Shown: piece by piece, positions 33,573 to 52,016 of the stretch
Layout of the letters: each line of letters opens with the position of its first letter
Position numbering within the stretch: position 1 is the first letter of the stretch
Assembly (NCBI GenBank): GCA_964473745.1
Contig: CAYYQE010000008.1
Location: forward strand, 73-64,072
Direction of reading: 5' to 3'
DNA from: an uncultured Candidatus Peribacteria bacterium
GTDB lineage: Bacteria > Patescibacteriota > Gracilibacteria > UBA1369 > UBA12473
Length of the DNA: 64,000 bases
Translations under genes and position numbers: made by a program
Notes under the pieces: generated by a model
Told to the model about the DNA's origin: nothing
Databases searched by the model: none
What the model saw: the letters and a program-made list of their open reading frames with translations, nothing else

Positions 33573-34463
33573 CTAAAACTGCACATTTTGGCGTTTCAAT
33601 TTTGAGCGGCCCAATTCTGATTCCTTTAGGTGATAATCCGCCAACACAATCCCCAGCTGCTCCGCCGTCGTTCGAGCCATTTTACGAGGACCCGGCATCC
33701 ATTCCTCTACTCCATCCATCACAATCGCCCCCCAAAATTCTCCATAAAGATCACGAATCGCAGCAATCATTCGACCATCATTTACCAAATGCCGACGATC
33801 TTTCCCAAGCAACTCTTCTATCCCCAATAATTCCTGCGTCGAAAGCTGATAATCACCCCAAGTCACTTTTACTTCTAAATGCCCAGTAACCTGATTTTTA
33901 AGGGCAATTGCCCCTTTTGGTGCCTGCGTAGCCAAAGCTAATTTACTACTTATTCGCGTTAACATTTTATCAATATCGCCTTTGAAATCATGCATCATTT
34001 TTGAAACATCATACATGGCCACTAATTCTTGATTAGCCCACTGCAAACGTTGGTTTACCACCTTAAAAAGAGCTAATAAAAGAGCACTCGCTTCATCAGG
34101 TTTTTCCACCAAAAACTTCTCAAAATCTGCTTTTTTAAGCACCAAAACTTCAACATCATCAATCGCCACAGCCGAAGCATTCCGCGGTTTTGCTGAAAGC
34201 AACGAACCTTCACCAAAAATCGCTCCCGGATCCAAAATAGCCAATACTTTTTTCTGATCATCACGAATTCTTTTGGCAATTTCAATATGCCCACTCAATA
34301 AAAGATACAGCTCTGAACTTGTTTCTGCTTCTTCAAAAATCAATTCCTTTTTTTCAAAATGCTTCTTTTCCCAAATTCCTTTTCCAGAAATAATTCTTTC
34401 TTGCTCTTCTGGAGCAAGGGCGGAAAAAAAATCTTCAATCTGTGAATGAAAACTCTTAGCCAT
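33573..34463 (-). CDS. Cyclic-nucleotide-binding domain protein with C-terminal GAF-like region
   Basis: A cNMP-binding beta-barrel pattern is present (ELYLLLSGHIEIAKRI...LDPGAIFGEGSLL...RNASAVA). The likely start is MAKSFHS at 34463, overlapping the pilT stop by 8 nt. Confidence 0.7.
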   Translation of the reverse strand: MAKSFHSQIEDFFSALAPEEQERIISGKGIWEKKHFEKKELIFEEAETSSELYLLLSGHIEIAKRIRDDQKKVLAILDPGAIFGEGSLLSAKPRNASAVAIDDVEVLVLKKADFEKFLVEKPDEASALLLALFKVVNQRLQWANQELVAMYDVSKMMHDFKGDIDKMLTRISSKLALATQAPKGAIALKNQVTGHLEVKVTWGDYQLSTQELLGIEELLGKDRRHLVNDGRMIAAIRDLYGEFWGAIVMDGVEEWMPGPRKMARTTAEQLGIVLADYHLKESELGRSKLKRQNVQF

Positions 34464-35520
34464 TAGAAATTTTTTGTTTAAAGGCTTCGATATCATGGGC
34501 TTTGGCCATCGCTGCCTCGGGAGTTACTGTACCATTTGCCACTAAATCAGCCAAGGAATCATCCAAAGTTTGCATCCCCTCACTTTTACCAATTTGAAGC
34601 ATAGAATAAATCTGGTGCGTTTGTCCTTCTTTCACACAATTACGCATCGCATCGTTCATTACCAATATTTCAAAAGCAGCGGCCCGACCTTTTCCATCAG
34701 CACGCGGCACCAAAGTCTGCGAAATCACTCCAAGTAATCCTACTGAAAGCTGAGCTCTAATCTGTTCTTGTTGATAAGCCGGAAAAACATCAATCATTCG
34801 ATCTACAGTTTGAGCCGCATCCGTAGTATGCAAAGTTGAAAGCACTAAATGCCCGGTTTCTGCCAAAGTAATGGCCGCAGCAATTGTCTCTAAATCACGC
34901 ATTTCTCCTACCAAAACCACGTCTGGATCCTGCCGCAAAGCCGACCGAATGGCCGTACTAAACGAGTCAGTATGCGAATTAACTTCACGTTGCGTAATTA
35001 AAGCGTTTTTTGAGGTATGAATAAACTCAATCGGATCTTCCACTGTAATAATATGACATTTGCGATTCGTATTCGCGTAATCAATCATCGACGCCAAAGT
35101 TGTGGACTTTCCACTCCCGGTTGGACCAGTAACCAAAATTAATCCCCGCGGCTTCATGGCAAATTCCCCAAAAATCGGGGGCAACCCCATTGACTCCAAC
35201 GAAGGCGGGCTACTGGGAATCGACCGGAAAGCAAGGGCAGTCCCCTCCTTCTCCTGATACAAATTAACTCTAAATCGACCCACATTCGGCGATCCATAAG
35301 AAAAATCTACTTCCTTGTGTTCCTGAAAAATAAGAAACTTCTTCTCTCCCGCTACTTTTTGCGCTATGGCTAGAATTTCTTCTTCTGTTAAAGCCGGCAT
35401 TTTATCTGTTGAAAAAAGCTCACCATTTGACTGACGAATAACCGGTGGACTCCCCACTTTTAGATGGAGATCCGGAGCATGACTCTCTACCACTTGTTTT
35501 AAGATCAAATCAATATCCAT
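34456..35520 (-). CDS. pilT: Type IV pilus retraction ATPase PilT
   Basis: A Walker A motif (GPTGSGKST), the GEMRD motif and the GHLVLSTLHT His box are present. Confidence 0.9.
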   Translation of the reverse strand: MDIDLILKQVVESHAPDLHLKVGSPPVIRQSNGELFSTDKMPALTEEEILAIAQKVAGEKKFLIFQEHKEVDFSYGSPNVGRFRVNLYQEKEGTALAFRSIPSSPPSLESMGLPPIFGEFAMKPRGLILVTGPTGSGKSTTLASMIDYANTNRKCHIITVEDPIEFIHTSKNALITQREVNSHTDSFSTAIRSALRQDPDVVLVGEMRDLETIAAAITLAETGHLVLSTLHTTDAAQTVDRMIDVFPAYQQEQIRAQLSVGLLGVISQTLVPRADGKGRAAAFEILVMNDAMRNCVKEGQTHQIYSMLQIGKSEGMQTLDDSLADLVANGTVTPEAAMAKAHDIEAFKQKISNG

Positions 35521-35647: not shown

Positions 35648-35754
35648 AATCAGCCTTGGCTTCTACCTAGAAACCATCTCCCCCCGTGGAGAATGAGTGT
35701 CTGGCTGCCGCCAAGACGCTTGTTCTTTCACATTCTCATGCCCGGAGCATACCC

Positions 35755-36381
35755 ATGTCCCGTTCCCTCCTCATCACCCTCGGCCTCGCCCTTGGCCTCG
35801 CCCTTGGCCTCGTCGGTATCGCCTGGTTCAGCGTCTACAAATCGAACCGCCTCAACGAGCGCAACGATCTGCGCGCCGAGGTCGCCGAGTACCTGGTCGA
35901 AACCGAGAAGGAAGCCGTCGACAACGCGATGAAGATCTCCCTCGGTGCCCTCAACAACTTCCAAAAGGGTGAATTCTACCACCGCAAGTCGAAAGTCGGC
36001 GCCAAGACCGTCGGCCTCTTCTCCCACGACCTCGAGCCTGCTCTGACCTTCCTGGTCGACCTCGAGCGCGCCGTCCACGCAACCACCTTCTTCTTCAACT
36101 ACTCGAGCACCGAGCAGCAGGCCCTGTTCGACTGCAACGGCGGGTTCAACGGCTTCGCCGTCCCCGCCGCCCTGCAGCACAACCTGGGCCACATTCGGAG
36201 CTTCAAGTGGCAAGTCTCGGACCTCGAGCTCACCACCGAAGCCATCACCACCGCCCAGGCCGAGTGGGCCACGCTCAAGGAGACCATGGACGTCAGCCTG
36301 CAGACCGCCTCGGCCCTGGCCCTCGATGACAACCCCTGGCGCTGCGTGTGGCCGGACGAGGTGGACGAGGAGCAGCTCTGA
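35755..36381 (+). CDS. Hypothetical signal-anchored protein encoded in GC-rich island 1
   Basis: A GGAG sits 7 nt upstream of the ATG at 35755. The 208-aa product starts MSRSLLITLGLALGLALGLVGIAWF (TM helix), and third codon positions are very G/C-rich. The ORF is open back to a GTG at 35686. I see no recognisable domain. Confidence 0.6.
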   Translation: MSRSLLITLGLALGLALGLVGIAWFSVYKSNRLNERNDLRAEVAEYLVETEKEAVDNAMKISLGALNNFQKGEFYHRKSKVGAKTVGLFSHDLEPALTFLVDLERAVHATTFFFNYSSTEQQALFDCNGGFNGFAVPAALQHNLGHIRSFKWQVSDLELTTEAITTAQAEWATLKETMDVSLQTASALALDDNPWRCVWPDEVDEEQL

Positions 36382-36455
36382 TGGATCCCCGAACCCTCAT
36401 CCTCCTCCTGGGCCTCACCGCCGCCGCCCTCTACGACTACTGGCTGATCATCTAG
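36381..36455 (+). CDS. 24-aa hydrophobic micropeptide, translationally coupled
   Basis: The TGATG stop/start overlap at 36379..36383 links it to the upstream ORF. My translation is MDPRTLILLLGLTAAALYDYWLII, with a TAG at 36453..36455, and codon bias matches the upstream ORF. Confidence 0.4.
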   Translation: MDPRTLILLLGLTAAALYDYWLII

Positions 36456-36488
36456 GCCTGCGGAACTGTGAAACGACCGAGCGTACAT

Positions 36489-36512
36489 GCCTCCCTCATC
36501 CCCGAGGGAGGC
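36489..36512 (+). terminator. GC-rich hairpin closing island 1
   Basis: GCCTCCCTC-atcccc-GAGGGAGGC forms a 9-bp perfect stem. The downstream T-tract is weak (CTTCGCTTATAAAAATTT). Confidence 0.55.
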
Positions 36513-36575
36513 CTTCGCTTATAAAAATTTCAAACCCGCCTTCCCACGCGCCCCTGAAAATGATAAAAAAGAAGC

Positions 36576-37220
36576 ATGAACCAACGACAACAAGTAATTT
36601 TAGAAATTCAACAAGCCGCGCTCCAAATAATTCAAGAGCGCTATGAGGACTTCCCATATCACAACGCTACCCACACCGGTTTTGTGATCGAAACTGCCAA
36701 TCTCTTGGCCCAAGACGCCAAACTTCCACAAGATCAACTCGAACTACTTACTTTAATGGCTGCGGCCCACGATTTAGTCCAAACCCACGATCCTCTTGCT
36801 GACGGGTATCTTGGCGAAAACGAAAATGAATCCGCTGACTGGCTCGCTGAACAAATGCTTGCCTCAGGCCAATTCGAAGACGACGAAATCGAACAAGCTC
36901 GTCGCGGCATAGAAGCCACCTTCATCCTCCATCGCGAAGACGGTATCAAACAATCCGCTGAATTTGGTGATTTTTTAAGTGAACTTCTTTGTGACGCTGA
37001 TCTTGCCAACCTCGGCAGTCCCTGGGACGTCTATTTCCCCAAAACCAAAGACTATTTCCAAGAAATCAACCCCAACTCAACCGAAGAAGAATGGAAGCAC
37101 TATTTACGTCTTCAAGTCCCAATCCTCCTCCAACACCACTACTACACCACCGTCGCCCAAGAACGATTCCCTCATTTACGTGAAAATGCCACAAAAATAG
37201 AAGACTCCTTAAAAGCCTAA
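36576..37220 (+). CDS. HD-domain phosphohydrolase-like protein
   Basis: A 214-aa ORF with H...HD spacing (YHNATHTGFV ... AAAHDLVQTHD). Confidence 0.55.
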   Translation: MNQRQQVILEIQQAALQIIQERYEDFPYHNATHTGFVIETANLLAQDAKLPQDQLELLTLMAAAHDLVQTHDPLADGYLGENENESADWLAEQMLASGQFEDDEIEQARRGIEATFILHREDGIKQSAEFGDFLSELLCDADLANLGSPWDVYFPKTKDYFQEINPNSTEEEWKHYLRLQVPILLQHHYYTTVAQERFPHLRENATKIEDSLKA

Positions 37221-38149
37221 TCCAGCTCCAAAACCTCTGGCAACCAATTACAATAATTGCCTTCTTTTTTTAATTCTTCCCTAATTTTGCGCATTTCTTT
37301 GCGCCACATCCCTTCAGAATAATTTTCATTCAAAATCATAAACTTCCCGTGATTCACTCCTACACACCCAAACATATGATGCGAATTAAAAACCCGCACA
37401 CAAAATTCCGCATCACGCGTATTCCCACACTGCCAACAAAAATTACAGTTATACAAATCATATCCCATCACACATTCATACAACAACTCGCCAGTCATAC
37501 ATTCGGTATCATAAATATCCTTACTTTTATCCACAATATGATAAGAATTTGCCGCGTCCTCGACATCATTCATGGAATAACAATTCAAACAATTCTTGGA
37601 ATTATAAATATGATCTCCGGTGCAATTTTCGGAATGAAGCTGAACCGACGCAATATGGGGAATTTTTTCACGCAGTGCTCCCACTTTTTCCAAAACTTCT
37701 TGCTGTTTTGCCGGAGTATCGGCCCGAAGCTCAGCTATTTTTTGCAAATACTCTTCTTTGGAATAAGGGGCATTAAAAATATGAAAACTTTTTTGCCTAA
37801 GCCCCACACACCCAAAACAATCATTACAACTTTTGCAATCATAACAAAACTGCAAATCGCGTGACCCCACACATTCCTCGCAAAAATCACAGTTATAACA
37901 CCGCTCACAAAACTCACATTCATAACAAAGTTCACACTTCATGCAGTGATACGTATCGCAACAATCTTTAAGCGTATTTGGATAGTAACAATAATAAGAA
38001 TCCTCACATTTATACCCAACAAAACACATGTAGGAATCCTTGGAAAAAGACAAACAATGCACGTAATCGCAGTTCTTGTTTGTTACCGAACGCAACGCAT
38101 ATGTTGGCTGGGATTCCAGTAGTTTTTTGAATTTTTCCAAAAAGCTCAT
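37217..38149 (-). CDS. Cysteine-ladder repeat protein, paralog A (uncharacterised)
   Basis: A 310-aa protein with about 32 Cys. It contains a CxxC ladder (CMKCELCYECEFCERCYNCDFCEEC) and an internal duplication whose halves end in CNDCFGCVGLRQKSFHIFNAPYSKEEY and HHMFGCVGVNHGKFMILNENYSEGMW. Confidence 0.7.
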   Translation of the reverse strand: MSFLEKFKKLLESQPTYALRSVTNKNCDYVHCLSFSKDSYMCFVGYKCEDSYYCYYPNTLKDCCDTYHCMKCELCYECEFCERCYNCDFCEECVGSRDLQFCYDCKSCNDCFGCVGLRQKSFHIFNAPYSKEEYLQKIAELRADTPAKQQEVLEKVGALREKIPHIASVQLHSENCTGDHIYNSKNCLNCYSMNDVEDAANSYHIVDKSKDIYDTECMTGELLYECVMGYDLYNCNFCWQCGNTRDAEFCVRVFNSHHMFGCVGVNHGKFMILNENYSEGMWRKEMRKIREELKKEGNYCNWLPEVLELD

Positions 38150-38164
38150 GAGCAGATTATAACA

Positions 38165-38446
38165 CTACCCCAGATGCTTCCAAAAACATTCCTGACAATA
38201 AACAATATATTTAGATTCCGGAGAATAAGTCGAAATAATATCGTTTTGGCACTTATCACATTTTCGTTTATATAATTTACGCTCATTCCGAAGAGAAAGT
38301 CGCCTTTTTTGACGACAATCCGGACAATTTTCTGGAAACGGCAGGTCTTTTTTCTTATAAAACTTCTGTTCCTGCTCAATTATCAAAAAATCCTTTGAGC
38401 AAGCCTTACATTTTGCAACCTTATTTTCAGTAGTAGTTTCTGTCAT
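38165..38446 (-). CDS. Stand-alone double zinc-ribbon protein
   Basis: A 93-aa protein with four CxxC pairs (CKAC...CPDC...CDKC...CQEC). It is homologous to both termini of the 533-aa fusion protein. Confidence 0.7.
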   Translation of the reverse strand: MTETTTENKVAKCKACSKDFLIIEQEQKFYKKKDLPFPENCPDCRQKRRLSLRNERKLYKRKCDKCQNDIISTYSPESKYIVYCQECFWKHLG

Positions 38447-38466
38447 GATTAGAAGGGTTAAATTAT

Positions 38467-39411
38467 TTAAGAAAGTTCAGGGACAGCCAATTCTGGATAG
38501 GTCGTTGGCAAATGTTTACCATATTCACCACTAGCTCTCATCTCAGCCTTAATCTCTGCTACTTTGCGGTGCCAATCCTCCTTGGAATACTGCTTATTAA
38601 AGATGCAATATTCTGCTCGATTCATCGTAAAACACCCAAACATATGATGCGAATTGTAAACATTTTCACAATACTCCAAATCATAAGAATCGAAAACCCC
38701 GTAACAATAGTTACAATTCGTAATATTCATGGCTGACATGATTTCGTAATTAAGCTCCGACTTATAATAATTATTTGAACAATCTAGAGAATCGGTAATT
38801 TCCTCACAATTATTCAAATAAGAACAATCCTGAAGTTTCTTAACATCAAAACAGTAATAACAATTCTTACAATTATAAATATAATCACCAAAAGATTTCT
38901 CGTTTTGATCGCCTCGAAGCATTAATCGCGGCATCTTCTTTTTAAGCTCCTTCACCTGCTGATCAATCTCTTCTCGCGATATTTGCTTTAATTCAGCTAA
39001 TTTAGATTCATACTCCTTCTTTGTGAATTTCTCATTAAAAATGTGATATTCCTTGCGCCGCAAACCCACACATCCAAAACAATCATTACACCCAACCATG
39101 TCAAAACAGTGCCGTAAACTTCGTGAACTTTTACAATCCTGACACCCTTCACATTCATAACATTCATGACAGTCTACACAGTCGTAACAAAGTCGACAAT
39201 AAAAGCAATAATCACAATCCGTGCAGTCCTCAGAGTTATATAAAAAGTATCCATAATAACAATCTTCGTCATATTCACTCCCCACTAACAAATAACAATT
39301 TTTAGTGTTCCCACTGTAATTTACAAATTCGCTGTTTTCGCAATTTACATAGAGTAAACCGACTCGCGGATGCTTATTTCTAAGCTCAATCATTTGATGA
39401 ATGTAGGACAT
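38467..39411 (-). CDS. Cysteine-ladder repeat protein, paralog B (uncharacterised)
   Basis: A 314-aa protein with the same architecture and signatures as paralog A (CNDCFGCVGLRRKEYHIFNEKFTKKEY; HHMFGCFTMNRAEYCIFNKQYSKEDW). Confidence 0.7.
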   Translation of the reverse strand: MSYIHQMIELRNKHPRVGLLYVNCENSEFVNYSGNTKNCYLLVGSEYDEDCYYGYFLYNSEDCTDCDYCFYCRLCYDCVDCHECYECEGCQDCKSSRSLRHCFDMVGCNDCFGCVGLRRKEYHIFNEKFTKKEYESKLAELKQISREEIDQQVKELKKKMPRLMLRGDQNEKSFGDYIYNCKNCYYCFDVKKLQDCSYLNNCEEITDSLDCSNNYYKSELNYEIMSAMNITNCNYCYGVFDSYDLEYCENVYNSHHMFGCFTMNRAEYCIFNKQYSKEDWHRKVAEIKAEMRASGEYGKHLPTTYPELAVPELS

Positions 39412-39514
39412 AATGTTGACAAATTAAATGACGATTGCATAGTAACACCTACCCACCAAATGTCAAGCGCTGACGACGCAATCCCGCCGTCGAAAAACTT
39501 TCGACAATCCCTTT

Positions 39515-41521
39515 CTAAAGCAGTATCATTTCCTTTAAATCAAAGGCATTAATCGGGTTAAATTCATCGGCATGTTCGCTGGCATATTTAACTGTGGCCT
39601 CATAAAGAGCCCAGTGACTATCTTGCATGTTTTGTGATCGGAAATCCGGTGTCTCTTCATGTACCCCAACTTCAAAAGGCGGCTCTTTTGTCACTTGCTT
39701 ACTATCATCCTCCCAATACACCGGCCAAAAAGGCGTACCTTGCAAATAAAAATTATTCTCGTGATATTTCATATTAATAAACTGCGGACCATTCTCCGCC
39801 TCCACCATCTGTTCTACGGCTCTAATAAACACATCCTCCCCTCCGGTCTGTGAACGCACCCATTCATACAATTTGACCTCAGAATGTTCGGGACGAACAT
39901 AAGATCCATAACGCTCATCTCCTAAATCTGGGTCGTTTCGACTTACAACAAACTGCCCTCCCTTATCCTTATAAACCTTGGCCAAAACCTCTCCAATTTC
40001 ACCCCCAACAGAAACCCCAGTAATTAACGGCGCATAACCAATCGCATCTTTTACAAACTGGTATCCGCCAGGTTCATCCAAAGTAAGCCCTGTTTCTAAA
40101 TCTAACCGATACTCCTCGTATTCGGTAAGAATCTTTTCCAATTCAACTTTATCCATTTCATTTAATCCTACTAAATCTTCAAACCCACTATAATAAGGAG
40201 TTGCTGGCCGCACATGATACGAAATTGCCACCATTTCCGAACTACTTAGTCGCTCCACCAACTCCGGATAATCCGCCACATAATTCTGAAAAGACGGACC
40301 TGTCACATAAATATCCACCGGCACCTGATACTGCTCGTGAATATCAATCACCTTATTAATTGCTTCCGCACTATTCTCAGGATACACCCAATCATGCACA
40401 TTTAAGGTAAAAAGGGTGTAAACATCCTTCAAATCATCATTTTGGACCGCGACCACATCCAACGCTACGGATTCTAAATAAACCTGAACTACATCCCACT
40501 GACTAGCCCATTGCAAAACTCCGTCATCTTGTAATTTTTGCGTTTCGGAAAAAAAGTAGCGAAGGGCATCTTCATTTTCCTCTTCAAAAATACTAACTGG
40601 CAAATAAACATTTAATTTCGCCACACGCGTTTTATCTCTAACAGACTCCATCTCCAAAACCTGCTCCAGGAATGCATCAACATCCTCACGCGTAAGTTCT
40701 GCCTCATCATCAAAACCGCCATCATCGGCCTGACTGGCCAAAGTCCCCATATCACCACTACTTATCACAATTATCCCATCCTCATCATGTTCAAAATCAT
40801 TTAAATCCTTGAGTTTCATTAAATAAATACGATCTTCTAAATTTTCGGGAGCTGGGTCATGAAAATGATCCAAAATATATTCGTCGGTCCAGGTTGGGTC
40901 TGGTCTATTTTCTTGCGGAATCGGAAGCAAAGCTCGCGCCACAATCCCATCTATATATTTAAATCCCGCAATTTCCGCTGCCGTTACCCAATCATTCATG
41001 CCATTTCCTCCTGAACAACCATGATTATTTTCTTCGCCGATCAGATCATCAACCAAAGCCTTATTAACCGCAAAAGCCTTTGAAAACTCCATCGGATTCA
41101 ACTCATTATCCGTATACTTCGGCCCCAAATCACAGTGAGTCCCCACCCCATGTCCACGATCCATGATTTCTTTCATCATATTGTGATCCCAAAGCGTATT
41201 CGCCCTGGCAAACGGCTGCTCAGATTCAATCGTCAAAATCGCGTCATACTCATCCGCCATATCCATTCCATATCGAAGTTCTTCCACATGCCTCCAAAAC
41301 ATATTCTCATTCTCATCATCATTATGACCAATTTCCATGTGAGTCATAGTGGTCATGTAAAGAGGATATTCTTGAACCGTTTCTTCTGGTAAATCTAGCG
41401 GCAGAACCTCATCAATAACCTGTTCAGGGACCTCTTCATCTAAATTATTCCAATAAAAAAGACCGCCAATCCCAAAAATTAAAACAAAAAAAAGCACCGA
41501 AAGGATAATATTACGTCTCAT
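39515..41521 (-). CDS. Signal-anchored extracytoplasmic protein, unknown function
   Basis: A 668-aa protein with an N-terminal TM helix (IILSVLFFVLIFGIGGLFYW). It has two roughly similar halves with His/Asp-rich motifs (HMEIGHNDD, GTHCD; NVHDWV, SYHVRP), possibly a metal-dependent carbohydrate esterase-like fold. This is a weak call. Confidence 0.5.
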   Translation of the reverse strand: MRRNIILSVLFFVLIFGIGGLFYWNNLDEEVPEQVIDEVLPLDLPEETVQEYPLYMTTMTHMEIGHNDDENENMFWRHVEELRYGMDMADEYDAILTIESEQPFARANTLWDHNMMKEIMDRGHGVGTHCDLGPKYTDNELNPMEFSKAFAVNKALVDDLIGEENNHGCSGGNGMNDWVTAAEIAGFKYIDGIVARALLPIPQENRPDPTWTDEYILDHFHDPAPENLEDRIYLMKLKDLNDFEHDEDGIIVISSGDMGTLASQADDGGFDDEAELTREDVDAFLEQVLEMESVRDKTRVAKLNVYLPVSIFEEENEDALRYFFSETQKLQDDGVLQWASQWDVVQVYLESVALDVVAVQNDDLKDVYTLFTLNVHDWVYPENSAEAINKVIDIHEQYQVPVDIYVTGPSFQNYVADYPELVERLSSSEMVAISYHVRPATPYYSGFEDLVGLNEMDKVELEKILTEYEEYRLDLETGLTLDEPGGYQFVKDAIGYAPLITGVSVGGEIGEVLAKVYKDKGGQFVVSRNDPDLGDERYGSYVRPEHSEVKLYEWVRSQTGGEDVFIRAVEQMVEAENGPQFINMKYHENNFYLQGTPFWPVYWEDDSKQVTKEPPFEVGVHEETPDFRSQNMQDSHWALYEATVKYASEHADEFNPINAFDLKEMILL

Positions 41522-41584
41522 ATTTGGAGGGTTAGTTTTCTTGATTATCTTACCACAAAAGCTGTTTTACCCTACAATGACCCC

Positions 41585-43186
41585 ATGAATACCTGCACCC
41601 AATGTCAAAATACGTTCGAAATTTCTGAAAAAAATCAGACTTTTTACGAACAAATCGCAGTCCCGCCACCAAAAAAATGCCCGGACTGTCGTTTAGTACG
41701 CCGTTTTATCGAACGCAATCCCAAAACTCTATACTATAGACTTTGCGATTTCACCAAAAACAATACTCTTTCTCAATTTCACGCTGATCAACCTTTTCCA
41801 GTTTACAGTCCAGAATCTTGGTGGAGCGAGAATTGGGACATCTTAAAATATGGTCAGGATTTTGACTTTGATCGCCCTTTTTTCGAACAATTTTTGGAAC
41901 TCAAAAACCGAACTCCACACCTCGCGCTCTTTAACACTGGTGGCACTATCCAAAACAGTGATTTCAACAACTGCACCGCTTATTTAAAAGACTGCTACTT
42001 AATTGCGGAAAGCGACTACTGTGAAGCCTGTTATTACTCAAATTTATTAAAAAATTGCCAATCCGTCGTGGACTGCTCAGTCTGCTACAAAGACGAACTT
42101 TGCTACGAATGTATCGACTGCACTAATTGTTATGCCTTACTCTATTCCCAAGACTGCCAAACCTGTAAAGATAGCTATTTTCTCCAAAACTGTACCTCCT
42201 GCTCTGATTGTATTGGCTGTATCAACCAACGCCAGCAGCAGTACCTAATTTTCAATAAAAAATACTCAAAAGAAGAATACGAAAAATTTAAAAACCAATT
42301 TGCTCTAAACACAAAAGAAGGAGTCGCTAAACTTGCACAAACCTGCACGGAATTCTTTTTAACCCAACCGAGAAAAAACCTCATCGCCGAACATAATGAA
42401 GGAAGCTCCGGAGATCATCTTTTCAACTCCAAAAACGCGCACCACTGTTTTGACAGCATTGATTTAGAAGATTGCTCCTACTGCGCCAAACTAACTCTGG
42501 GCGTCAAAACCTCTATGGATTACAATTCCTGGGGAAACAAATGCGAACTCATGTATCAGTGCACTTCCTGCGGGGATCACTGCTATAACTTAAAATTCTG
42601 CGCCAACTGCCAAAGTGACATGAATAATTGTGAATACTGCGTCGAATGTTTTGGCTGCTCCGACTGCTTTGGCTGCGCTAATCTAAAAAAAGAAAGCTTT
42701 TGCATCTTTAATAAAAAATACTCCGAAAAAGACTATCACGAGCTAAAAAATCGCATCATTGCCCATATGAAAAAAACGGGTGAATATGGCGAATTTTTTC
42801 CAATCGAAATTTGTCCGTACGGGTACAACGAAACCATGGCCATGGACGCTTTTCCCCTCACCAAAGAACAAGCTCTTGAACAAGGATTCAAATGGTATGA
42901 CCCCCCTGAACCAAAATCATCCAGCAATACGAACGCCGCCCTTTGCGATTGCGGCAAAAACTTTAAAATCATCAACCAAGAAGTAGTTTTTTACAAAAAA
43001 CTAAACATCCCCACTCCTGATAAATGCCCCCTCTGCCGTCACAAAACCCGCATAGCCAAACGTAGGCCACTTAAATTATGGGACCGTAAGTGCACCAAAT
43101 GCAACGCCGCCATTAAATCTAATTACGCCCCCGAACGTCCCGAAATAATCTACTGCGAAAAATGTTATTTAAAGGAGGTCTATTAA
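41585..43186 (+). CDS. Fusion protein: zinc-ribbon + duplicated cysteine-ladder domain + double zinc-ribbon (paralog C)
   Basis: A 533-aa protein. The N-terminus (CTQCQNTFEISEKNQTFYEQ...CPDCRLVRR) and C-terminus (CDCGKNFKIINQEVVFYKK...CPLCRHKTR...CTKC...YCEKCY) both match the 93-aa protein. The middle matches paralogs A and B. Confidence 0.75.
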   Translation: MNTCTQCQNTFEISEKNQTFYEQIAVPPPKKCPDCRLVRRFIERNPKTLYYRLCDFTKNNTLSQFHADQPFPVYSPESWWSENWDILKYGQDFDFDRPFFEQFLELKNRTPHLALFNTGGTIQNSDFNNCTAYLKDCYLIAESDYCEACYYSNLLKNCQSVVDCSVCYKDELCYECIDCTNCYALLYSQDCQTCKDSYFLQNCTSCSDCIGCINQRQQQYLIFNKKYSKEEYEKFKNQFALNTKEGVAKLAQTCTEFFLTQPRKNLIAEHNEGSSGDHLFNSKNAHHCFDSIDLEDCSYCAKLTLGVKTSMDYNSWGNKCELMYQCTSCGDHCYNLKFCANCQSDMNNCEYCVECFGCSDCFGCANLKKESFCIFNKKYSEKDYHELKNRIIAHMKKTGEYGEFFPIEICPYGYNETMAMDAFPLTKEQALEQGFKWYDPPEPKSSSNTNAALCDCGKNFKIINQEVVFYKKLNIPTPDKCPLCRHKTRIAKRRPLKLWDRKCTKCNAAIKSNYAPERPEIIYCEKCYLKEVY

Positions 43187-43569
43187 ACCCTCCCCACAAA
43201 CATTCCCAATTCCTTAAACAACGGCACCCACGTCTCATATTTTTTGGAAAGGAGAATTTTGTAGGTTTTGGGTTCATTGCTGCGCACGACCAACACATTT
43301 TTGTTCAAACCATATTTCCCCTGCGCCACATACTCGATATCTTTAAGTGGCAGGTTAAAAACAAATGGATTCGGATGCCACGGCTTACCTGTTATCATCC
43401 CCCACACCTTGCGTGGCCATTCATAAAAAATTGTTAGCCAGTGCACGGTCGTAACTTTCAAAACTAGGCGCTGATTTGTTAAGTACAGCCGATAACTCAT
43501 GTTCATATTAAATTTCATATAACGAACATAATCGTCGACCAATAATTTTTCGTTTGGATGAAGTTGCAT
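43183..43569 (-). CDS. Hypothetical 128-aa protein (bacterial PH-domain-like?)
   Basis: An ORF with host-like composition. The pattern RLYLTNQRLVLK ... LPLKDIEYV is reminiscent of bPH/GRAM-like folds. This is a weak call. Confidence 0.4.
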   Translation of the reverse strand: MQLHPNEKLLVDDYVRYMKFNMNMSYRLYLTNQRLVLKVTTVHWLTIFYEWPRKVWGMITGKPWHPNPFVFNLPLKDIEYVAQGKYGLNKNVLVVRSNEPKTYKILLSKKYETWVPLFKELGMFVGRV

Positions 43570-47489: not shown

Positions 47490-50400
47490 CTAAACAAGTT
47501 CCTCAACCGCCAACAACAATTTATCTTTAAGTTCAGGGTGTTTTCTAAGAATTTTCAAAATTCTTACTTCTATCTGGCGAATACGTTCCCTGCTTAATCC
47601 CCATCTACCCCCAATTTCGACAAGTGTTAAAACACTCTGTTTATCATTAAATCCAAACCGATTAACAAACACATCCCAAAATCTTTCTATATCTTTTGCT
47701 CCCACCTCATCCTCAATAATAACTCTTATTTCTTCAAGCAACATGCTCCGTTGCTCTCTTTGTTCAACTTCAACAAAACCATCATCAACCTCGCCCATTA
47801 AATCACCCCGACGGTTAGCATTTGCATCTTCGTCATTCATTGGAGCATCTAACTGGACCTCTCCACTAGCAGCGATACTAGCAAGATCTATAAGATCTTT
47901 TACTTCTTCAATTGGCATATCCAACATTTCCGCAAGATCTTCTGGGGTTGCCTGTCGATGGTTAGTCCTCAAAAACATACCTCGTGCTCTGTTTAATTTC
48001 TTAATATCTTGTTGAAGATGAATTGGAATTCGAACTGCACGATGGTGATTTTCGATATATCTAATTATAAATTGTCGAATCCACTGATTAGCATAAGTTG
48101 AAAGTCTAATCCCCCGATGAGGGTCAAACTTTTGAACCGCCCTTATAAGTCCCATATTTCCTTCTTGAATAAGATCAGGGAAAGGTAAATTAGTCCAGGT
48201 ATATTTCTTAGCAATCCAAACAACAAGACGCAAATTTCTGGTTATTAATTCATTGAGAGCCTCTTGATCACCAGCTTCCTTTCTGACACCTAACTCGTGC
48301 TCTTCTTCTCTAGTTAAAATGCTCGTAGCAGGCCCTAATTGAATAACACTTTGTTCACCCAAAATTAAACCCTGTGGCTCGCGCCGAGGCTTCACCTTTG
48401 GCTTTGGCTCAGGCTCCTCAACTTCAGCTAATAAATTTGTTGCTTTTTCATATAATTGGAAAGCATATTTATCAGTCAAAAAATCAGCTATCTCGGGTAG
48501 CAAAAGTCTACGATTAGGCAAAACCTCTGCTTCGACTATTAAAGACTGTAACTCTCCTCCAAGTAATTTTTCCTTAACTACCTCTAACACCCTTTCACTA
48601 ATAATTTGACTATAAGAAATACGGGCAATGACATGCAACACTCTTAATAAAACCTGGATAAGCATATCTCGTTGCCTAGGTCTTACTGATCTTTCTTCTA
48701 AAATTGCGTTAAATTCAGCTACATAAGTCTGAATTTGCTGCAAAGAAAACAAACTATAACGAACAACCAATTGTGGATTCGCTTCAGCCTCTTTTCTTAA
48801 TTGTCCGTCACCAGTTAAAAACTCAAACTTTTTCCACATTGTCGCTTCTGTCGTACGATGAGCAACCCATCCCTCAACGTGATCCCAACGCATCCCAAAA
48901 GCATCTCGCAATTTCTGACCCGCATGCTGATTAGCTAACTTTTGTTCTATCCGCCGAGGTGCATATTGACGGCAATGCCTAGCAGGCTTATCTAAATAAT
49001 CTTCGTAATCTCGAGGTTCAGGATAAGTCTTACCACAAGTGTCCGCCTCTAATTCAATAGCACTTAAAAAGAAAGCATTCTCACGCAATTCTGCTAAATT
49101 AACGGCACTTCTAGTTAGTTTTTCAGTCCACAAAGACGAACAACCCAGATTACTTAAAAACGCTCTCTTTAACCTCTGCGCTGGAGTTAAATTAGTAGGA
49201 TCTAAAAGTTCTTCTATGTCATCTATCTCTTCCAATTTTCCATAAAGCATTCCCGAAGTAACTTCCACCTGCCCCGCCTCCAAATAAGCAATTCTTTTTA
49301 AAACTCCCCTTGCTCGGGCGCGTGACCCACAACAAGCTTCCATATCAGCATATCCTAATCGATGAAATCTTAAACTCTCCCTAACTTGCCTCTTTAAATC
49401 ACACGAAGTATACAAAAACTTTAAGACTTCTTTAAGCTGCCTATTAACACTTCCTCGCCCCAGAGTCCCAGCTGATTCTAAAACAGTAGTTATTCTTTGT
49501 TGCTGAGCAGATGTTGCTTCCTCTAAAAGCGCCACATGTGCAACTCCTCGATAAGCAGTAGACCCTAACTGTTCATTTAACCGGACCGCTAAATTTTGAC
49601 CACTCAACCAAAACTCTTCCTCTGGCGTTAATTCGCGACGTTTTTGCTGCCGCCCTAAACGAGCCGCTAATTCTTCCCGAATTTTAATCGGCAAACTAAA
49701 AGCATTCATTAAATTAAATTGCACTGATGTAACACCATAACCTAACAATCGAAATACTCGACAATAATCAGCTAAAACATCTGGCTCACGATTTTCTAAA
49801 GACTCTGGCACAATTCCTGTTTCAAAACCAAACACCTCCCCCAATTCAACTAATCTCTTTTCTTGTGTTAATTTTCTCCAAGCCCTTTCCACGCCTCGAT
49901 CTCTTTGCTTTTGAGAAGCGTTAATCCAAGCCCATTGCCCTTCAAAAGAAACACCACGCGCTTCAATTTCCTGAATAATTTCTAAAGTTCGAGCTGTTCT
50001 ATATATATAGCCTGGCGGATCCTTCAACCCACGCTCTTCTGAAAACCTAGTAAACGCTGCTTCGTCCTCCGCCCTAACCTCTTCGGCCTTAACCTCCGCA
50101 GCCGATGGGCCAGGTGTCATTTTTGTTCTAATAACTTCCAAACTACTATCTAAAAGAGCCGGTTGTATTTTCCCAAAATGCTCTAACATAAACTCCGCTT
50201 TAGCAAGAACTGTAGAAGGACGAAGCCTTCTAATAGCCCTCTGTAAAGACCCAATTGGACAACCCAACTCTGCCAATCTCTCTCTGGCGGCTTGTTCTGC
50301 TGGAGCTATTGAAGCACTAAAACGAGGCATCTCCACAGGCAATGAAGGTGTTGGCGTTAGATCAGGTTCATTTTCAGCTAACACTTCTAACTGAGTTTGA

Positions 50401-52016
50401 ATTCGCTGATGACTCTTTCCTTTTATTTTTAGTGCTCGCGCCGCCCGTCGCAGATCTTTCCAACTATTTACATGCAAAAAATGAACGTAAAGTTCCCGTG
50501 GAGCACCTTCCTTTTCAAAAATAACAATTCTTTCTTCAATTCTTTTTACACTCGTTTGATTTGCCGCAAACAGTATTTGTCGCATATAAGTTGGTATATC
50601 TTCATTTTTAGCAAAAAACGCTACCTTATTCCGTAAACGCTGGAAAGACGCACTATCAGGGCCTCCCACAAAATGTGTCTGCTTCGGAGCAATAGTAATT
50701 CCATCTCGCAAAGTATGCTGAAGAGTTTCTCTTAAATATCTAGCTGAAAAAGCTTTACCAGGAGGGAAAGGATGCCCCAAAGCATTCTGTTCCACATAGG
50801 CTACTAATTCCGGTCGAGGCATATCATCAAAGTCCTCCGGAACTGCTGCTAATCTAAATATCGGCGGTGCCTTTTCCATATGCTCAATTGTTTTGCGCCT
50901 CACAAAAACTCGCCTCAAATTTGCACGAATGTGTTTTTTTGAATGATCTGTAATCTTTTCTAGCCGCTCTCTTGTTATCCAAATATCATAAATCTGTATT
51001 CCATATTCACTAAAATATTCTGTTTCTAAAAGCAAATGCTGCCAAACAAACACATAAGTATATCTCCCAGCAGAATCTTCAACTGGAATCGGAGTTGTAG
51101 TTCGTTGAATAGCATTATATAAATCTGCCTCTATTATCTGACGAACTCCATTTAAAACCGCTTCCCAATCATCCCCCTCACAATCAACCTCCTCGCTAGT
51201 CGGCACCCGCTTCAATTCCAAAGATTTCTGCAAAGCCTGGTGGACAACTTCTTCAGAAGGGGCCACACATTCCCCCTCCCGATCAGTGTGCGTTAAAACA
51301 GTACTTTTGATAACAATTTCTACCGCTCTCCCAAGCCCACCAAAAGCTCTTACAAATCTTCCATTATGATAACGGCATTCACTTTGCTGCGGGAGTGAGG
51401 TCCCAGTTTGATAAGTCCGATTATCAGCTGGAAGATCATTTTTTTCATTATAAGCTCGCCATAATTCCTCGGCTAGAGCTTTTCGCAAGGGCTCCTCTTC
51501 TGTCTCAGCAACTATAAATCTAAATCTCATTTGATGAACAACTTCATGATAACTATGTCCAATTCCTTCTAATAAATGTCTCAATTGTGCCGCTTCACGT
51601 CGAGCCCCATACTCTGGATGTTCGGCCAAAAAATCATCCAAAGTCCCAGGATGAAACACCGTACGGCCTTCTGCTTGCCGCGCTTCCCAATGACGACACT
51701 GAAAATGATATAACGCTAACAAAAATTGCAATTGGGCTTTAATCGCTTCAGCATACCTTTCCATTGCGATCGCTTCCTGTTCCTGCACTGGCTCAGGTGA
51801 AACCAAAGCCGCTTCCTTTATTTCATGAAGAGGTCCATCCCAAGCTCCTAAAATCATCTCCAAACTATCTGGCGTAGCATCAACTGCTAATTGATCTCGC
51901 GTAGCCAACATTACTGAAGGCAACGGGCTAGAAGCATCCACTATTTCAGAAGCAGCAGCTTTCTCTATAATTGTTTGCGCCGGAAAAACCCAAGAAGCCT
52001 CAAGACGATCATTCAT
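47490..52016 (-). CDS. Giant sigma-70 family protein: roughly 1233-aa unknown N-terminal extension + RpoD-like regions 1.2-4
   Basis: The C-terminal 275 aa (nt 47490..48317) carry LTREEEHELG...NLRLVVWIAKKY (1.2/2.1), DLIQEGNMGLIRAVQKFDPHRGIRLSTYANQWIRQ (2.2-2.4), region 3, and LSRERIRQIEVRILKILR (4.2). The preceding 1233 aa have no motif I recognise. Confidence 0.85.
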   Translation of the reverse strand: MNDRLEASWVFPAQTIIEKAAASEIVDASSPLPSVMLATRDQLAVDATPDSLEMILGAWDGPLHEIKEAALVSPEPVQEQEAIAMERYAEAIKAQLQFLLALYHFQCRHWEARQAEGRTVFHPGTLDDFLAEHPEYGARREAAQLRHLLEGIGHSYHEVVHQMRFRFIVAETEEEPLRKALAEELWRAYNEKNDLPADNRTYQTGTSLPQQSECRYHNGRFVRAFGGLGRAVEIVIKSTVLTHTDREGECVAPSEEVVHQALQKSLELKRVPTSEEVDCEGDDWEAVLNGVRQIIEADLYNAIQRTTTPIPVEDSAGRYTYVFVWQHLLLETEYFSEYGIQIYDIWITRERLEKITDHSKKHIRANLRRVFVRRKTIEHMEKAPPIFRLAAVPEDFDDMPRPELVAYVEQNALGHPFPPGKAFSARYLRETLQHTLRDGITIAPKQTHFVGGPDSASFQRLRNKVAFFAKNEDIPTYMRQILFAANQTSVKRIEERIVIFEKEGAPRELYVHFLHVNSWKDLRRAARALKIKGKSHQRIQTQLEVLAENEPDLTPTPSLPVEMPRFSASIAPAEQAARERLAELGCPIGSLQRAIRRLRPSTVLAKAEFMLEHFGKIQPALLDSSLEVIRTKMTPGPSAAEVKAEEVRAEDEAAFTRFSEERGLKDPPGYIYRTARTLEIIQEIEARGVSFEGQWAWINASQKQRDRGVERAWRKLTQEKRLVELGEVFGFETGIVPESLENREPDVLADYCRVFRLLGYGVTSVQFNLMNAFSLPIKIREELAARLGRQQKRRELTPEEEFWLSGQNLAVRLNEQLGSTAYRGVAHVALLEEATSAQQQRITTVLESAGTLGRGSVNRQLKEVLKFLYTSCDLKRQVRESLRFHRLGYADMEACCGSRARARGVLKRIAYLEAGQVEVTSGMLYGKLEEIDDIEELLDPTNLTPAQRLKRAFLSNLGCSSLWTEKLTRSAVNLAELRENAFFLSAIELEADTCGKTYPEPRDYEDYLDKPARHCRQYAPRRIEQKLANQHAGQKLRDAFGMRWDHVEGWVAHRTTEATMWKKFEFLTGDGQLRKEAEANPQLVVRYSLFSLQQIQTYVAEFNAILEERSVRPRQRDMLIQVLLRVLHVIARISYSQIISERVLEVVKEKLLGGELQSLIVEAEVLPNRRLLLPEIADFLTDKYAFQLYEKATNLLAEVEEPEPKPKVKPRREPQGLILGEQSVIQLGPATSILTREEEHELGVRKEAGDQEALNELITRNLRLVVWIAKKYTWTNLPFPDLIQEGNMGLIRAVQKFDPHRGIRLSTYANQWIRQFIIRYIENHHRAVRIPIHLQQDIKKLNRARGMFLRTNHRQATPEDLAEMLDMPIEEVKDLIDLASIAASGEVQLDAPMNDEDANANRRGDLMGEVDDGFVEVEQREQRSMLLEEIRVIIEDEVGAKDIERFWDVFVNRFGFNDKQSVLTLVEIGGRWGLSRERIRQIEVRILKILRKHPELKDKLLLAVEELV

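Follow-up and report, generated by a model that had tools for sequence, protein, structure and literature searches.

Three cysteine-rich genes, here called A, B and C, lie within about 6 kb of each other in a 64,000-nucleotide stretch of DNA (the window) from an uncultured Candidatus Peribacteria bacterium, and we are highly confident that they belong to one large, unnamed family of cytoplasmic proteins that is limited to Patescibacteria, the ultra-small CPR bacteria. The same high confidence extends to the architecture of the family, whose usual form resembles C: a zinc-ribbon module, a core built of Cys ladders, and a second zinc-ribbon module. The genes of the window, with a 93-residue companion called Z, and their parts are as follows.

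37217..38149, minus strand: gene A, an open reading frame of 310 residues with 32 Cys; core-only, without a zinc ribbon of its own
37790..38077, minus strand: N-lobe ladder of A (residues 25-120), containing the uninterrupted run CMKCELCYECEFCERCYNCDFCEEC and the cap motif CKSCNDCFGC
37355..37633, minus strand: C-lobe ladder of A (residues about 173-265), a Cys-poorer copy ending in NSHHMFGC
38165..38446, minus strand: gene Z, 93 residues; a basic double zinc ribbon with 8 Cys arranged as four CxxC and a net charge of +8
38467..39411, minus strand: gene B, an open reading frame of 314 residues with 29 Cys; core-only, two Cys-ladder lobes, matched by the core HMM over residues 1-306
39052..39339, minus strand: N-lobe ladder of B (residues 25-120), 8 coils of 12 residues, recognized by the 12-residue register and the Cys gaps
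41585..43186, plus strand: gene C, an open reading frame of 533 residues with 48 Cys; the canonical full-length architecture, matched by the core HMM over residues 99-411
41585..41878, plus strand: N-terminal module of C (residues 1-98); first zf_Tbcl ribbon intact (C4, C7, C32, C35), second site degenerate
41879..42817, plus strand: double Cys-ladder core of C (residues 99-411, from the core HMM), acidic with a net charge of -11
42944..43183, plus strand: C-terminal double zinc ribbon of C (residues 454-533), basic with a net charge of +11 and 44% identical to Z

All three open reading frames were found at the positions and on the strands that a first-pass annotation of this DNA had given them, and BLASTP bears out its description of them as paralogs (A and B, 36% identity, E 2e-66; A and C, 32%, E 2e-43). 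Each protein is also, as had been described, an internal duplication with a shared signature closing both halves; the two halves of A align at 34% identity (E 1e-21), and a regular-expression search located 6 of the 6 signature strings at the places quoted. The further claim that the proteins lack a signal peptide and transmembrane helices agrees with their hydropathy, since the Kyte-Doolittle score stays at or below 0.76 throughout A, B and C (19-residue windows); the 668-residue protein encoded nearby has a transmembrane segment at its N-terminus (score 2.61). Genes B, Z and A form a tightly spaced run headed by B, with 21 nt between the stop of B and the start of Z and 16 nt between the stop of Z and the start of A.

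Cys accounts for 10.3% of A (32/310), 9.2% of B (29/314) and 9.0% of C (48/533), the median among open reading frames of at least 200 residues in the window being 0.8%. The distance from one Cys to the next is a multiple of three in 24 of 31 gaps in A, 26 of 28 in B and 28 of 34 in the core of C. When the sequences were shuffled 20,000 times the mean number of such gaps was 8-10 and the maximum 20-22, so that the observed counts were never reached and the ladder reported earlier is real rather than a product of chance. A 12-residue register can be read in the sequence alone, each lobe comprising 8 coils of 12 residues; Cys predominates at the four positions of a coil that fall on every third residue, and every row of the B N-lobe begins with [KEQR]-[DN]-[CS]. 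The lobes end in a conserved cap, CxxCxxCFGCxxL[RK]x[KQ]xYxIFNxxYSKEEY, which is followed by a helix.

The ladder core is covered by no curated family in Pfam-A, NCBIfam or PADLOC, and a PDB sequence search with E <= 10 matched no chain, in line with the earlier observation that its spacing fits no familiar ferredoxin, radical-SAM, metallothionein or HiPIP motif. At E <= 1, A gave no Pfam family at all, and B and C gave sub-threshold chance matches to cwf21 and DUF6565, respectively. Assignments to 4Fe-4S ferredoxins, radical SAM proteins, HiPIPs and metallothioneins were rejected: no model was matched at E <= 1, and the cap CxxCxxCxxC has no Pro and is spaced unlike CxxCxxCxxxCP or CxxxCxxC. 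Metallothioneins, ferredoxin-type CxxCxxCxxxCP proteins and the CxxC-containing VSPs of Giardia resemble the ladder proteins in their high Cys content and CxxC spacing; unlike these, however, the ladder proteins are long and beta-rich, keep a strict 12-residue geometry with replaceable Cys, match none of the corresponding profiles, and have neither a signal peptide nor a membrane anchor.

The first-pass annotation had taken Z for a zinc ribbon, and the Pfam model zf_Tbcl (PF13451) matches its residues 9-49 with 35.5 bits, above the cut-off of 24 (E 9.9e-9), with Cys at 13, 16, 41 and 44. The second half of Z holds an exact CxxC-x17-CxxC (Cys 63, 66, 84 and 87) and scores below the cut-offs of zf_Tbcl_2 (PF23477; 23.7 bits, E 4e-5, cut-off 27 bits) and TIGR04272 (21.3 bits, E 1.6e-4, cut-off 36 bits). 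We found no mention of PF13451, PF23477 or TIGR04272 in the literature searched. C, which had been described as a ladder protein, is more than that, since it carries Z-like modules at both ends (BLASTP against Z: residues 4-80, 39% identity, E 5e-17; residues 445-532, 44%, E 1e-22), in the order N-terminal zinc-ribbon module, double ladder core, conserved linker and C-terminal double zinc ribbon. The zf_Tbcl match at its N-terminus (residues 3-39, 21.1 bits, E 3e-4) falls under the 24-bit cut-off; C orthologs, P0281 and P0316 among them, reach 32-35 bits there, and the conservation of C4, C7, C32 and C35 is 90% or higher. The proteins described by zf_Tbcl, zf_Tbcl_2 and TIGR04272, with their CxxC-x17-CxxC, are like Z and both ends of C, and zf_Tbcl_2 also ends some of the neighbouring ATPases discussed below, but these models cover the flanking ribbons only and not the ladder core.

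The earlier view of the zinc ribbon as a genuine partner of the ladder holds well beyond the window: in related loci, 168 of 227 family members have it fused to the core at both ends. A Z-like gene lies directly downstream of 8 of 40 core-only genes, and the B-Z arrangement recurs in 8 loci. Judged from these arrangements, B and Z are a split version of the usual protein with its basic treble-clef modules at both ends, Z being the split-off C-terminal module of B, and A has evidently lost its zinc ribbons. The core is acidic across the family (mean charge -9.5, pI 5.3).

Searches retrieved 2,478 cluster representatives of the family at E <= 1e-3 and 577 at E <= 1e-30. With C as the query there were 4,422 matches, and more than 120 C orthologs align over their full length at 49% identity or more. 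The family was confirmed in at least 595 species-genome stretches, and the 79 loci kept for neighbourhood work are essentially all from Patescibacteria. Tandem arrays of up to 8-9 paralogs occur in related genomes. Neighbours within an array share a median identity of 35.5% (maximum 59%), and 147 of 148 array members have their best match in another locus, at a median identity of 55%. We take the array paralogs to be old, each conserved across genomes.

The AlphaFold model of A (pLDDT 80, pTM 0.78) is mostly beta, with DSSP strands about every 6 residues running through both lobes; its N-lobe ladder is modelled at pLDDT 86-94, with coil positions 3 and 9 at strand centres and positions 6 and 12 at turns. 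In the model of C (pLDDT 82, pTM 0.85) the C-terminal double zinc ribbon reaches pLDDT 84-96, and the ladder regions only 60-75. Predicted DSSP and the 12-residue register, which shows also in the Cys-presence correlations (positive at separations 3, 9, 12 and 15, negative at 6 and 18), together place the proteins among beta-solenoids, a structural kind and not a homologous family, and we consider it likely from the models that they fold into narrow paired lobes whose 12-residue coils each contribute two short strands. The weak Foldseek matches were all beta-solenoids, headed by the pentapeptide-repeat proteins QnrB1 (2xtw), EfsQnr (2w7z) and 6fls, and none in the search was significant (best PDB E 0.18, TM about 0.1). 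Pentapeptide-repeat proteins share with the predicted ladder structure a repetitive, acidic, cytoplasmic beta-solenoid with [DN] before the inward-pointing residue, whereas their coil has 20 residues (4 x 5) with Leu or Phe inside, as against 12 residues and Cys. Membership of that family was rejected, as no Pentapeptide Pfam model was matched and the repeat has 12 residues instead of the 5-residue A[DN]LXX of a 20-residue coil.

Another parallel is offered by TmAFP, the Tenebrio molitor-type insect antifreeze beta-helix (PDB 1EZG). TmAFP is a very narrow beta-solenoid with a 12-residue coil, whose core has no room for large hydrophobic side chains and is filled by regularly spaced Cys; it is secreted, and its Cys, placed every 6 residues, form cross-coil disulfides. 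The ladder proteins would share its narrow solenoid and regularly spaced core-filling Cys, but they are cytoplasmic, have Cys every 3 residues, and show a negative correlation between opposite Cys (separation 6). With no PDB sequence match, this negative correlation and no signal peptide, we rejected an antifreeze assignment, the 12-residue coil length being the only feature shared; no Pfam antifreeze model matched A, B or C. A phage protein family, phrog_15341, matches the ladder regions of A, B and C by profile at E 3e-7 to 5e-10, a match that is confined to the repeat region and could reflect repeat composition. The best viral fold match was the BFVD model A0A8S5RUL5 (E 1e-3, probability 0.99, 158 alignment columns), and no viral relatives were found in IMG/VR or among GenBank phages.

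A rival reading, which develops the leading idea of the first-pass annotation, is a multi-site metal or Fe-S protein, with Zn, Fe or Fe-S centres lined up on the ladder thiolates for metal or sulfur storage, redox buffering or electron transfer. We regard this as unlikely, and its obligatory, fixed-ligand form appears weakened by the family alignment, where cores contain anything from 9 to 41 Cys and the Cys frequency of ladder columns is 26-90%, so that 10-74% of members have Ser, Leu, Val or Ile instead. Because most ladder Cys are individually replaceable by these residues, they look like core-packing residues, perhaps with zinc staples, and not like a fixed Fe-S motif. The strongest pairwise correlation of Cys presence was only phi 0.56, and none of the quartets examined behaved in an all-or-none manner; where quartet columns 87/90/99/102 contain no Cys, they read L-S-S-L in 124 of 235 cases. 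The Cys that vary least, in columns 105, 108, 111 and 114 (conserved at 0.80-0.96) and column 259 (0.95), persist in low-Cys members. Negative correlations at separations 6 and 18 argue against a metal or disulfide between opposite strand-centre Cys. No Fe-S, metallothionein or radical-SAM model was matched, as described above, metal-handling genes do not recur nearby, and arrays of at least 8 old, conserved paralogs suit specialized partners better than bulk storage.

Other features favour metal. A content of 9-10% Cys with CxxC periodicity is itself suggestive in a cytoplasmic protein, and the positive correlations at separations 3, 9, 12 and 15 are the pattern of two stacked CxxC knuckles. 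Stacked-CxxC quartets are enriched about 1.1- to 6-fold (several of them at least 2-fold), compared with 1.3- to 1.7-fold for same-coil quartets, and this leans towards real four-residue units and against a mainly packing role. In 63% of members the cap CxxCxxCxxC is complete, and 92% keep three or more of its Cys. The residue in columns 123 and 268 is Cys, His, Met or Tyr, but His adjoining the cap shows no association with loss of cap Cys (odds ratio 1.18, p 0.40). The confident model of the fully Cys-laddered A N-lobe also counts on the side of metal. Close thiols in a cytoplasmic protein bind Zn or Fe where geometry permits, so sequence alone cannot separate mainly packing from metal-stapled Cys, and whether the ladder Cys are mainly structural appears to us evenly balanced.

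The first-pass annotation had further proposed a dedicated local system made up of the three copies, an HD phosphohydrolase-like gene and the 668-residue protein. Conservation of neighbours, one of the points on which this proposal had beforehand been said to stand or fall, gave a divided answer: the HD gene occurs in only three loci, the window included, and the 668-residue protein is missing from the recurrent neighbour clusters, whereas a TrwB/VirD4-like ATPase and a TrmB-like regulator do recur. Arrays often adjoin an orphan ATPase of this kind, frequently encoded just downstream: a gene like the type IV coupling proteins (T4CPs) was present in 18 of 79 loci, at a distance of no more than 400 bp in 11 of them, and on the same strand in 12 of 13. 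These ATPases match Pfam TrwB_AAD_bind, T4SS-DNA_transf and TraG-D_C, and two of them carry zf_Tbcl_2 at 46-50 bits. Such an enrichment has a chance probability of P about 1e-10, assuming a genome of about 1 Mb and the published figure of ~2 T4CP genes per genome (PMC12102498). The TrmB-like regulator lies within 400 bp in 13 loci, on the opposite strand in 11 of 14, and this divergent gene probably controls the arrays. Neither the ATPase nor the TrmB gene is found in the window, and both are absent from 48 of 79 loci, so any functional tie may be confined to some members; we rate a link between the ladder family and the ATPase as tentative and somewhat improbable.

Taken together, the explanation that we prefer overall, although tentatively and at a little less than even confidence, is a family of solenoids with structural Cys that would act as scaffolds or adaptors with an ATPase. 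Most ladder Cys would be a small apolar filling for a coil that has no space for an ordinary hydrophobic core, and stacked CxxC pairs on successive coils, together with the cap CxxCxxCxxC, may chelate structural Zn. The product would be a rigid acidic rod with basic, treble-clef zinc-ribbon 'hands' at its ends. Most speculatively, many old and specialized paralogs of this rod might work as scaffolds or adaptors alongside the orphan VirD4/TrwB-like ATPase.

A bolder version, which is possible but doubtful, is a new metalloprotein architecture, namely a cytoplasmic beta-helix of 12-residue coils in which stacked CxxC pairs form a series of Zn(Cys)4 (or Fe) sites that staple each coil to the next, while the many old paralogs act with the orphan VirD4-like ATPases as their adaptors or clients. 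If true, the Zn- or Fe-stapled ladder would be an intracellular counterpart of the disulfide-stapled insect antifreeze helix, and the ladder paralogs would be the missing partners of the VirD4-like ATPases that abound in Patescibacteria.

It is quite improbable that the ladder proteins are cargo, recognized through their basic C-terminal module by the VirD4-like coupling ATPase and exported to the host cell of the CPR bacterium. Substrates of type IV systems typically carry positively charged C-terminal signals, and the C-terminal module of C is basic (+11); same-strand T4CP-like ATPases also lie immediately downstream of tandem arrays. That many patescibacterial T4CP genes lie away from virB4 fits such a role, but only 148 of 5,713 T4CPs are near virB4, and the T4CP of Ca. 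S. epibionticum was dispensable for epibiotic growth, the authors of that study not ruling out exaptation of the gene for other functions (PMC12102498). Moreover, the window has no T4CP-like ATPase, tight zinc ribbons and a rigid solenoid would make poor substrates for an unfolding-dependent channel, and the paralogs are old and conserved (their best matches in other loci have a median identity of 55%, C orthologs at least 49%), unlike effectors with their rapid turnover.

Equally improbable is a nucleic-acid mimic or binding regulator, with the acidic solenoid imitating DNA and the basic ribbons binding DNA or RNA so as to modulate a DNA-translocating FtsK/TrwB-type ATPase: pentapeptide-repeat proteins imitate DNA toward gyrase and QnrB1, EfsQnr and a Clostridium pentapeptide protein head the Foldseek matches, the charges of core and ribbons suit the idea, and the neighbouring ATPase fits TrwB_AAD_bind ('Type IV secretion-system coupling protein DNA-binding domain'), but these matches are non-significant (E >= 0.18, TM about 0.1) and without a Pentapeptide Pfam match, and a 12-residue coil would be far thinner than the 20-residue pentapeptide coil, which matches the width of B-DNA.

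Patescibacteria account for a large part of bacterial diversity, and this is a large, group-restricted family, often with at least 8 conserved paralogs per locus, whose ladder core lies outside all domain databases and solved structures. Its members are now labelled 'hypothetical' or, wrongly, 'Epidermal growth factor receptor', and they deserve a domain model. The association with VirD4/TrwB-like ATPases, which are mostly orphan in the literature (PMC12102498), gives a concrete lead. The ladder proteins may show how an ultra-thin beta-helix is built in the reducing cytoplasm, with a thiol-packed or zinc-stapled core replacing disulfides.

The three open reading frames (ORFs) of the cysteine-ladder (CxxC-repeat) cluster, here called A, B and C, were found where the first-pass annotation had placed them. 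They are listed together with Z, the zinc-ribbon gene between B and A:

37217..38149, minus strand: A, cysteine-ladder protein of 310 aa with 32 Cys
38165..38446, minus strand: Z, 93-aa protein with a Pfam zf_Tbcl domain (35.5 bits, against a cut-off of 24) and, after it, a CxxC-x17-CxxC unit
38467..39411, minus strand: B, cysteine-ladder protein of 314 aa with 29 Cys
41585..43186, plus strand: C, cysteine-ladder protein of 533 aa with 48 Cys

Cysteine makes up 9–10% of A, B and C, as compared to a median of 0.8% among the remaining long ORFs in the window. Gaps between successive cysteines are divisible by three in 24 of 31 cases in A, 26 of 28 in B and 28 of 34 in the core (the two cysteine-ladder lobes) of C, counts that 20,000 shuffles per protein never reached. 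The proposed paralogy was borne out by BLASTP (A versus B, 36% identity, E = 2e-66; A versus C, 32%, E = 2e-43), as was the internal duplication, the two halves of A being 34% identical (E = 1e-21). All six of the signature strings quoted for the lobe ends were located, and A, B and C each lack a hydrophobic segment suitable as a signal peptide or transmembrane (TM) helix, in line with the first-pass annotation. The order on the minus strand is the gene for a secreted 668-aa protein, B, Z and A, with 21 nt between the stop of B and the start of Z and 16 nt between the stop of Z and the start of A. Promoter and terminator scans gave counts no higher than the shuffle expectation; a single TTGACA-16-TACTAT match lies directly upstream of B. 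An ORF of 128 aa (43183..43569, minus strand), which runs opposite to C and overlaps its stop by 4 nt, showed a weak, sub-cut-off resemblance to the GRAM domain (E = 0.005).

The ladder proteins belong to a large family. An exhaustive phmmer search with B retrieved 2,478 cluster representatives (E ≤ 1e-3), mostly of about 550 aa as in C; C itself gave 4,422 matches, of which more than 120, from Peregrinibacteria, Gracilibacteria and Magasanikbacteria, were at least 49% identical from end to end. When one genome per species was scanned, at least 595 confirmed stretches were obtained, from which 79 loci were kept, essentially all in Patescibacteria (CPR). No model in Pfam, NCBIfam or PADLOC matched the core, and searches of A, B, C and Z against these and PHROGs returned zinc-ribbon models and the unnamed phage family phrog_15341 only, the latter matching the ladders (A residues 38–116, B 62–115, C 126–220; E = 3e-7 to 5e-10). 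A phage origin was rejected, as tblastn against 50,697 phage records gave 0 matches and IMG/VR yielded no relative. PDB sequence searches with B, a 103-sequence profile and Z gave no meaningful match, and literature searches on the Pfam/TIGR ribbon accessions, on cysteine-rich CPR families and on CXXC in Patescibacteria turned up no account of the ladder family. The suspicion that no Fe-S or metallothionein family fits proved right, as membership tests failed for all. Existing names of members are "hypothetical", "zinc-ribbon domain containing protein" and, once, "Epidermal growth factor receptor". The last is the NCBI record title of P0089, a homolog of A from Candidatus Peregrinibacteria GW2011_GWA2_38_36 that matched no Pfam family at E ≤ 0.1; the name is most likely a misannotation, presumably arising from Cys-rich similarity. 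A Pfam match to the TR130 NTS domain in another homolog (P0019) was set aside as chance, since it falls in a helical linker and was not seen in other homologs.

Of the whole protein, only the flanking zinc ribbons fall in a named domain family, one without an assigned function. Modules like Z occur at both ends of C (E = 5e-17 and 1e-22), giving the canonical architecture of ribbon, core and ribbon. Across the 227 family ORFs of the 79 related loci and the window, ribbons flank the core at both ends in 168 and are missing from 41. Eight core-only genes, including B, are followed directly downstream on the same strand by a Z-like gene (65–108 aa). B and Z together are therefore the canonical protein in split form, and the zinc-ribbon gene does belong with the ladder protein, as had been supposed. 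The cores are acidic, with a mean net charge of −9.5 across the family and a pI of 5.3; the ribbons are basic (Z, +8; C-terminal module of C, +11).

When set at 12 residues per row, the N-lobes of A, B and C align as eight rows, which open with [KEQR]-[DN]-[CS] and carry Cys at row positions 3, 6, 9 and 12. An AlphaFold model of A, built from an alignment of 103 homologs (pLDDT 80, pTM 0.78), is beta nearly throughout, with short strands at intervals of about six residues; row positions 3 and 9 are strand centres and 6 and 12 are turns. The model of C (pLDDT 82, pTM 0.85) exceeds 90 at the zinc-ribbon ends and the cap-plus-helix regions, and reaches only 60–75 in the ladders. With Foldseek, neither model gave anything below E 0.001 against PDB, nor did model A against BFVD (top viral match, A0A8S5RUL5, E = 1e-3). 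The weak matches were beta-solenoids without exception, led by Qnr-type pentapeptide-repeat proteins. We take the core to consist of two narrow beta-solenoid lobes, which are made of 12-residue coils and end in the cap motif, with a helix after each cap; the coil handedness and side-chain geometry are those we infer. Pentapeptide-repeat proteins are the nearest weak fold matches, and the 12-residue coil of the insect antifreeze helix, which is held by disulfides, is the nearest structural idea, but membership tests failed for both. The ladder family would be a beta-solenoid repeat protein with zinc-ribbon modules.

An alignment of 544 non-redundant cores was used to examine the role of the cysteines. 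A single core has between 9 and 41 Cys in total, and ladder columns are 26–90% Cys, with Ser, Leu, Val or Ile otherwise. Cys presence shows a weak positive correlation at separations of 3, 9, 12 and 15, whereas the correlation is negative for separations of 6 and 18; this pattern is that of a 12-residue coil in which same-side neighbours cluster and opposite residues compensate. The negative correlation counts against disulfides or metal sites between opposite strand-centre cysteines. Pair correlation never rose above phi 0.56 and no all-or-none quartet was found, so that obligate disulfide or Cys4 units were rejected. Stacked CxxC pairs are complete more often than expected under independence, several of them at least 2-fold and one 6-fold; same-coil quartets are enriched only 1.3- to 1.7-fold. 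At columns 87/90/99/102 the Cys-free quartet reads L-S-S-L in 124 of 235 cases, swapped as a unit. Conservation is highest for the cysteines of the cap CxxCxxCxxC (columns 105–114, 0.80–0.96) and, in the second cap, for the Cys of FGC (0.95); these are retained even in the Cys-poorest members. At the C-lobe cap (SHHMFGC), a test for ligand swapping from Cys to His showed no association. In our reading of these statistics, the ladder cysteines primarily fill a very narrow coil; structural zinc is plausible at the caps and perhaps also in stacked CxxC pairs. An obligatory Fe-S or metal-storage role is less likely, and we consider a multi-metal or Fe-S protein a rather doubtful alternative.

In many loci the family forms co-oriented tandem arrays, with up to eight or nine copies in 17 kb. 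Array neighbours share a median identity of 35.5% (maximum 59%), and 147 of the 148 array members have their closest relative at a different locus (median 55% identity). The arrays are not recent amplifications; paralogs this numerous and old, each conserved separately, point to specialised partners rather than to dosage or rapid diversification.

Two genes recur as neighbours. The first encodes a VirD4/TrwB-like ATPase (Pfam TrwB_AAD_bind, T4SS-DNA_transf, TraG-D_C) and is present in 18 of the 79 loci, in 11 of which a family gene is no more than 400 bp away; 12 of the 13 close-by ATPase genes are co-stranded with the family gene, typically just downstream. With about two VirD4-like genes per genome, from a published survey (PMC12102498), and an assumed genome size of ~1 Mb, its presence in 18 of 79 far exceeds chance (P about 1e-10). 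Two of three Pfam-scanned ATPases (L079:11296-12930 and L051:13490-15472, in loci from related genomes) carry a C-terminal zf_Tbcl_2 ribbon (46–50 bits), probably the domain that forms the second half of Z as well, and L026:9943-12006 shows the CxxC motif in its sequence. A TrmB-like HTH protein occurs in 16 loci, within 400 bp in 13 and divergent in 11 of 14. In Parcubacteria-type loci the coupling-ATPase-like (T4CP-like) unit is spread over three genes (L040:247-3701, L054:3041-6421, L026:2618-7661), encoding an N-domain protein with one TM helix (447–461 aa), a small membrane protein (171–195 aa) and the ATPase (482–503 aa); Peregrinibacteria have a single fusion of N-domain and ATPase (~750 aa), which lacks a TM helix. 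The published survey counted 5,713 VirD4-like genes across 2,918 patescibacterial genomes, 148 of them near virB4, and left their exaptation for other functions possible (PMC12102498).

Neither the ATPase nor the TrmB-like gene is present in the window, and the Gracilibacteria ortholog of C has yet another set of neighbours. The HD-like gene and the 668-aa secreted protein, earlier listed as neighbours, were rejected as functional partners, since conservation ends at the closest relatives: the HD gene recurs in these only, and the secreted protein is missing from the recurrent neighbour clusters. A chaperone link (GroEL/ES near C here, ClpB near the Gracilibacteria ortholog) did not recur either. 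At 33573..35520 (minus strand), the 3' end of a gene for a PilT-like T2SSE ATPase (354 aa) shares 41 nt with the gene for a cyclic-nucleotide-binding protein (307 aa); counting the window, PilT is found in four loci and the cyclic-nucleotide-binding protein in three. Several long ORFs overlap on both strands at 35686..36650, one of 231 aa with a hydrophobic N-terminal segment, and matched no Pfam or NCBIfam family; the adjoining 2-kb bin (36001–38000) has the highest G+C of the window (0.478). The 1,508-aa protein at 47490..52016 (minus strand) is a sigma factor of unusual size, with sigma-70 regions 2, 3 and 4 at residues ~1257–1492 only and an N-terminal extension of ~1,250 aa without a Pfam match.

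Observed in this analysis are the family and its architecture, the B-plus-Z split, the cysteine periodicity, the pattern of charge, the tandem arrays and the neighbours that recur; beside these we set a proposed role. A rigid acidic rod with basic zinc-ribbon ends would act as a scaffold or adaptor. Speculatively, the orphan VirD4/TrwB-like ATPase might be the partner of the rod, which could dock by way of the zinc-ribbon domain common to both, and the TrmB-like regulator might govern this system. That the ladder proteins are exported cargo of the ATPase next to which they are encoded seems improbable to us, and we give as little credence to a nucleic-acid mimic or binder. CPR genomes contain many families like this one that lack a function, which tempers the significance of the finding; it would grow with a zinc-stapled helix, which is possible, and with a link between the rod and the orphan ATPases.
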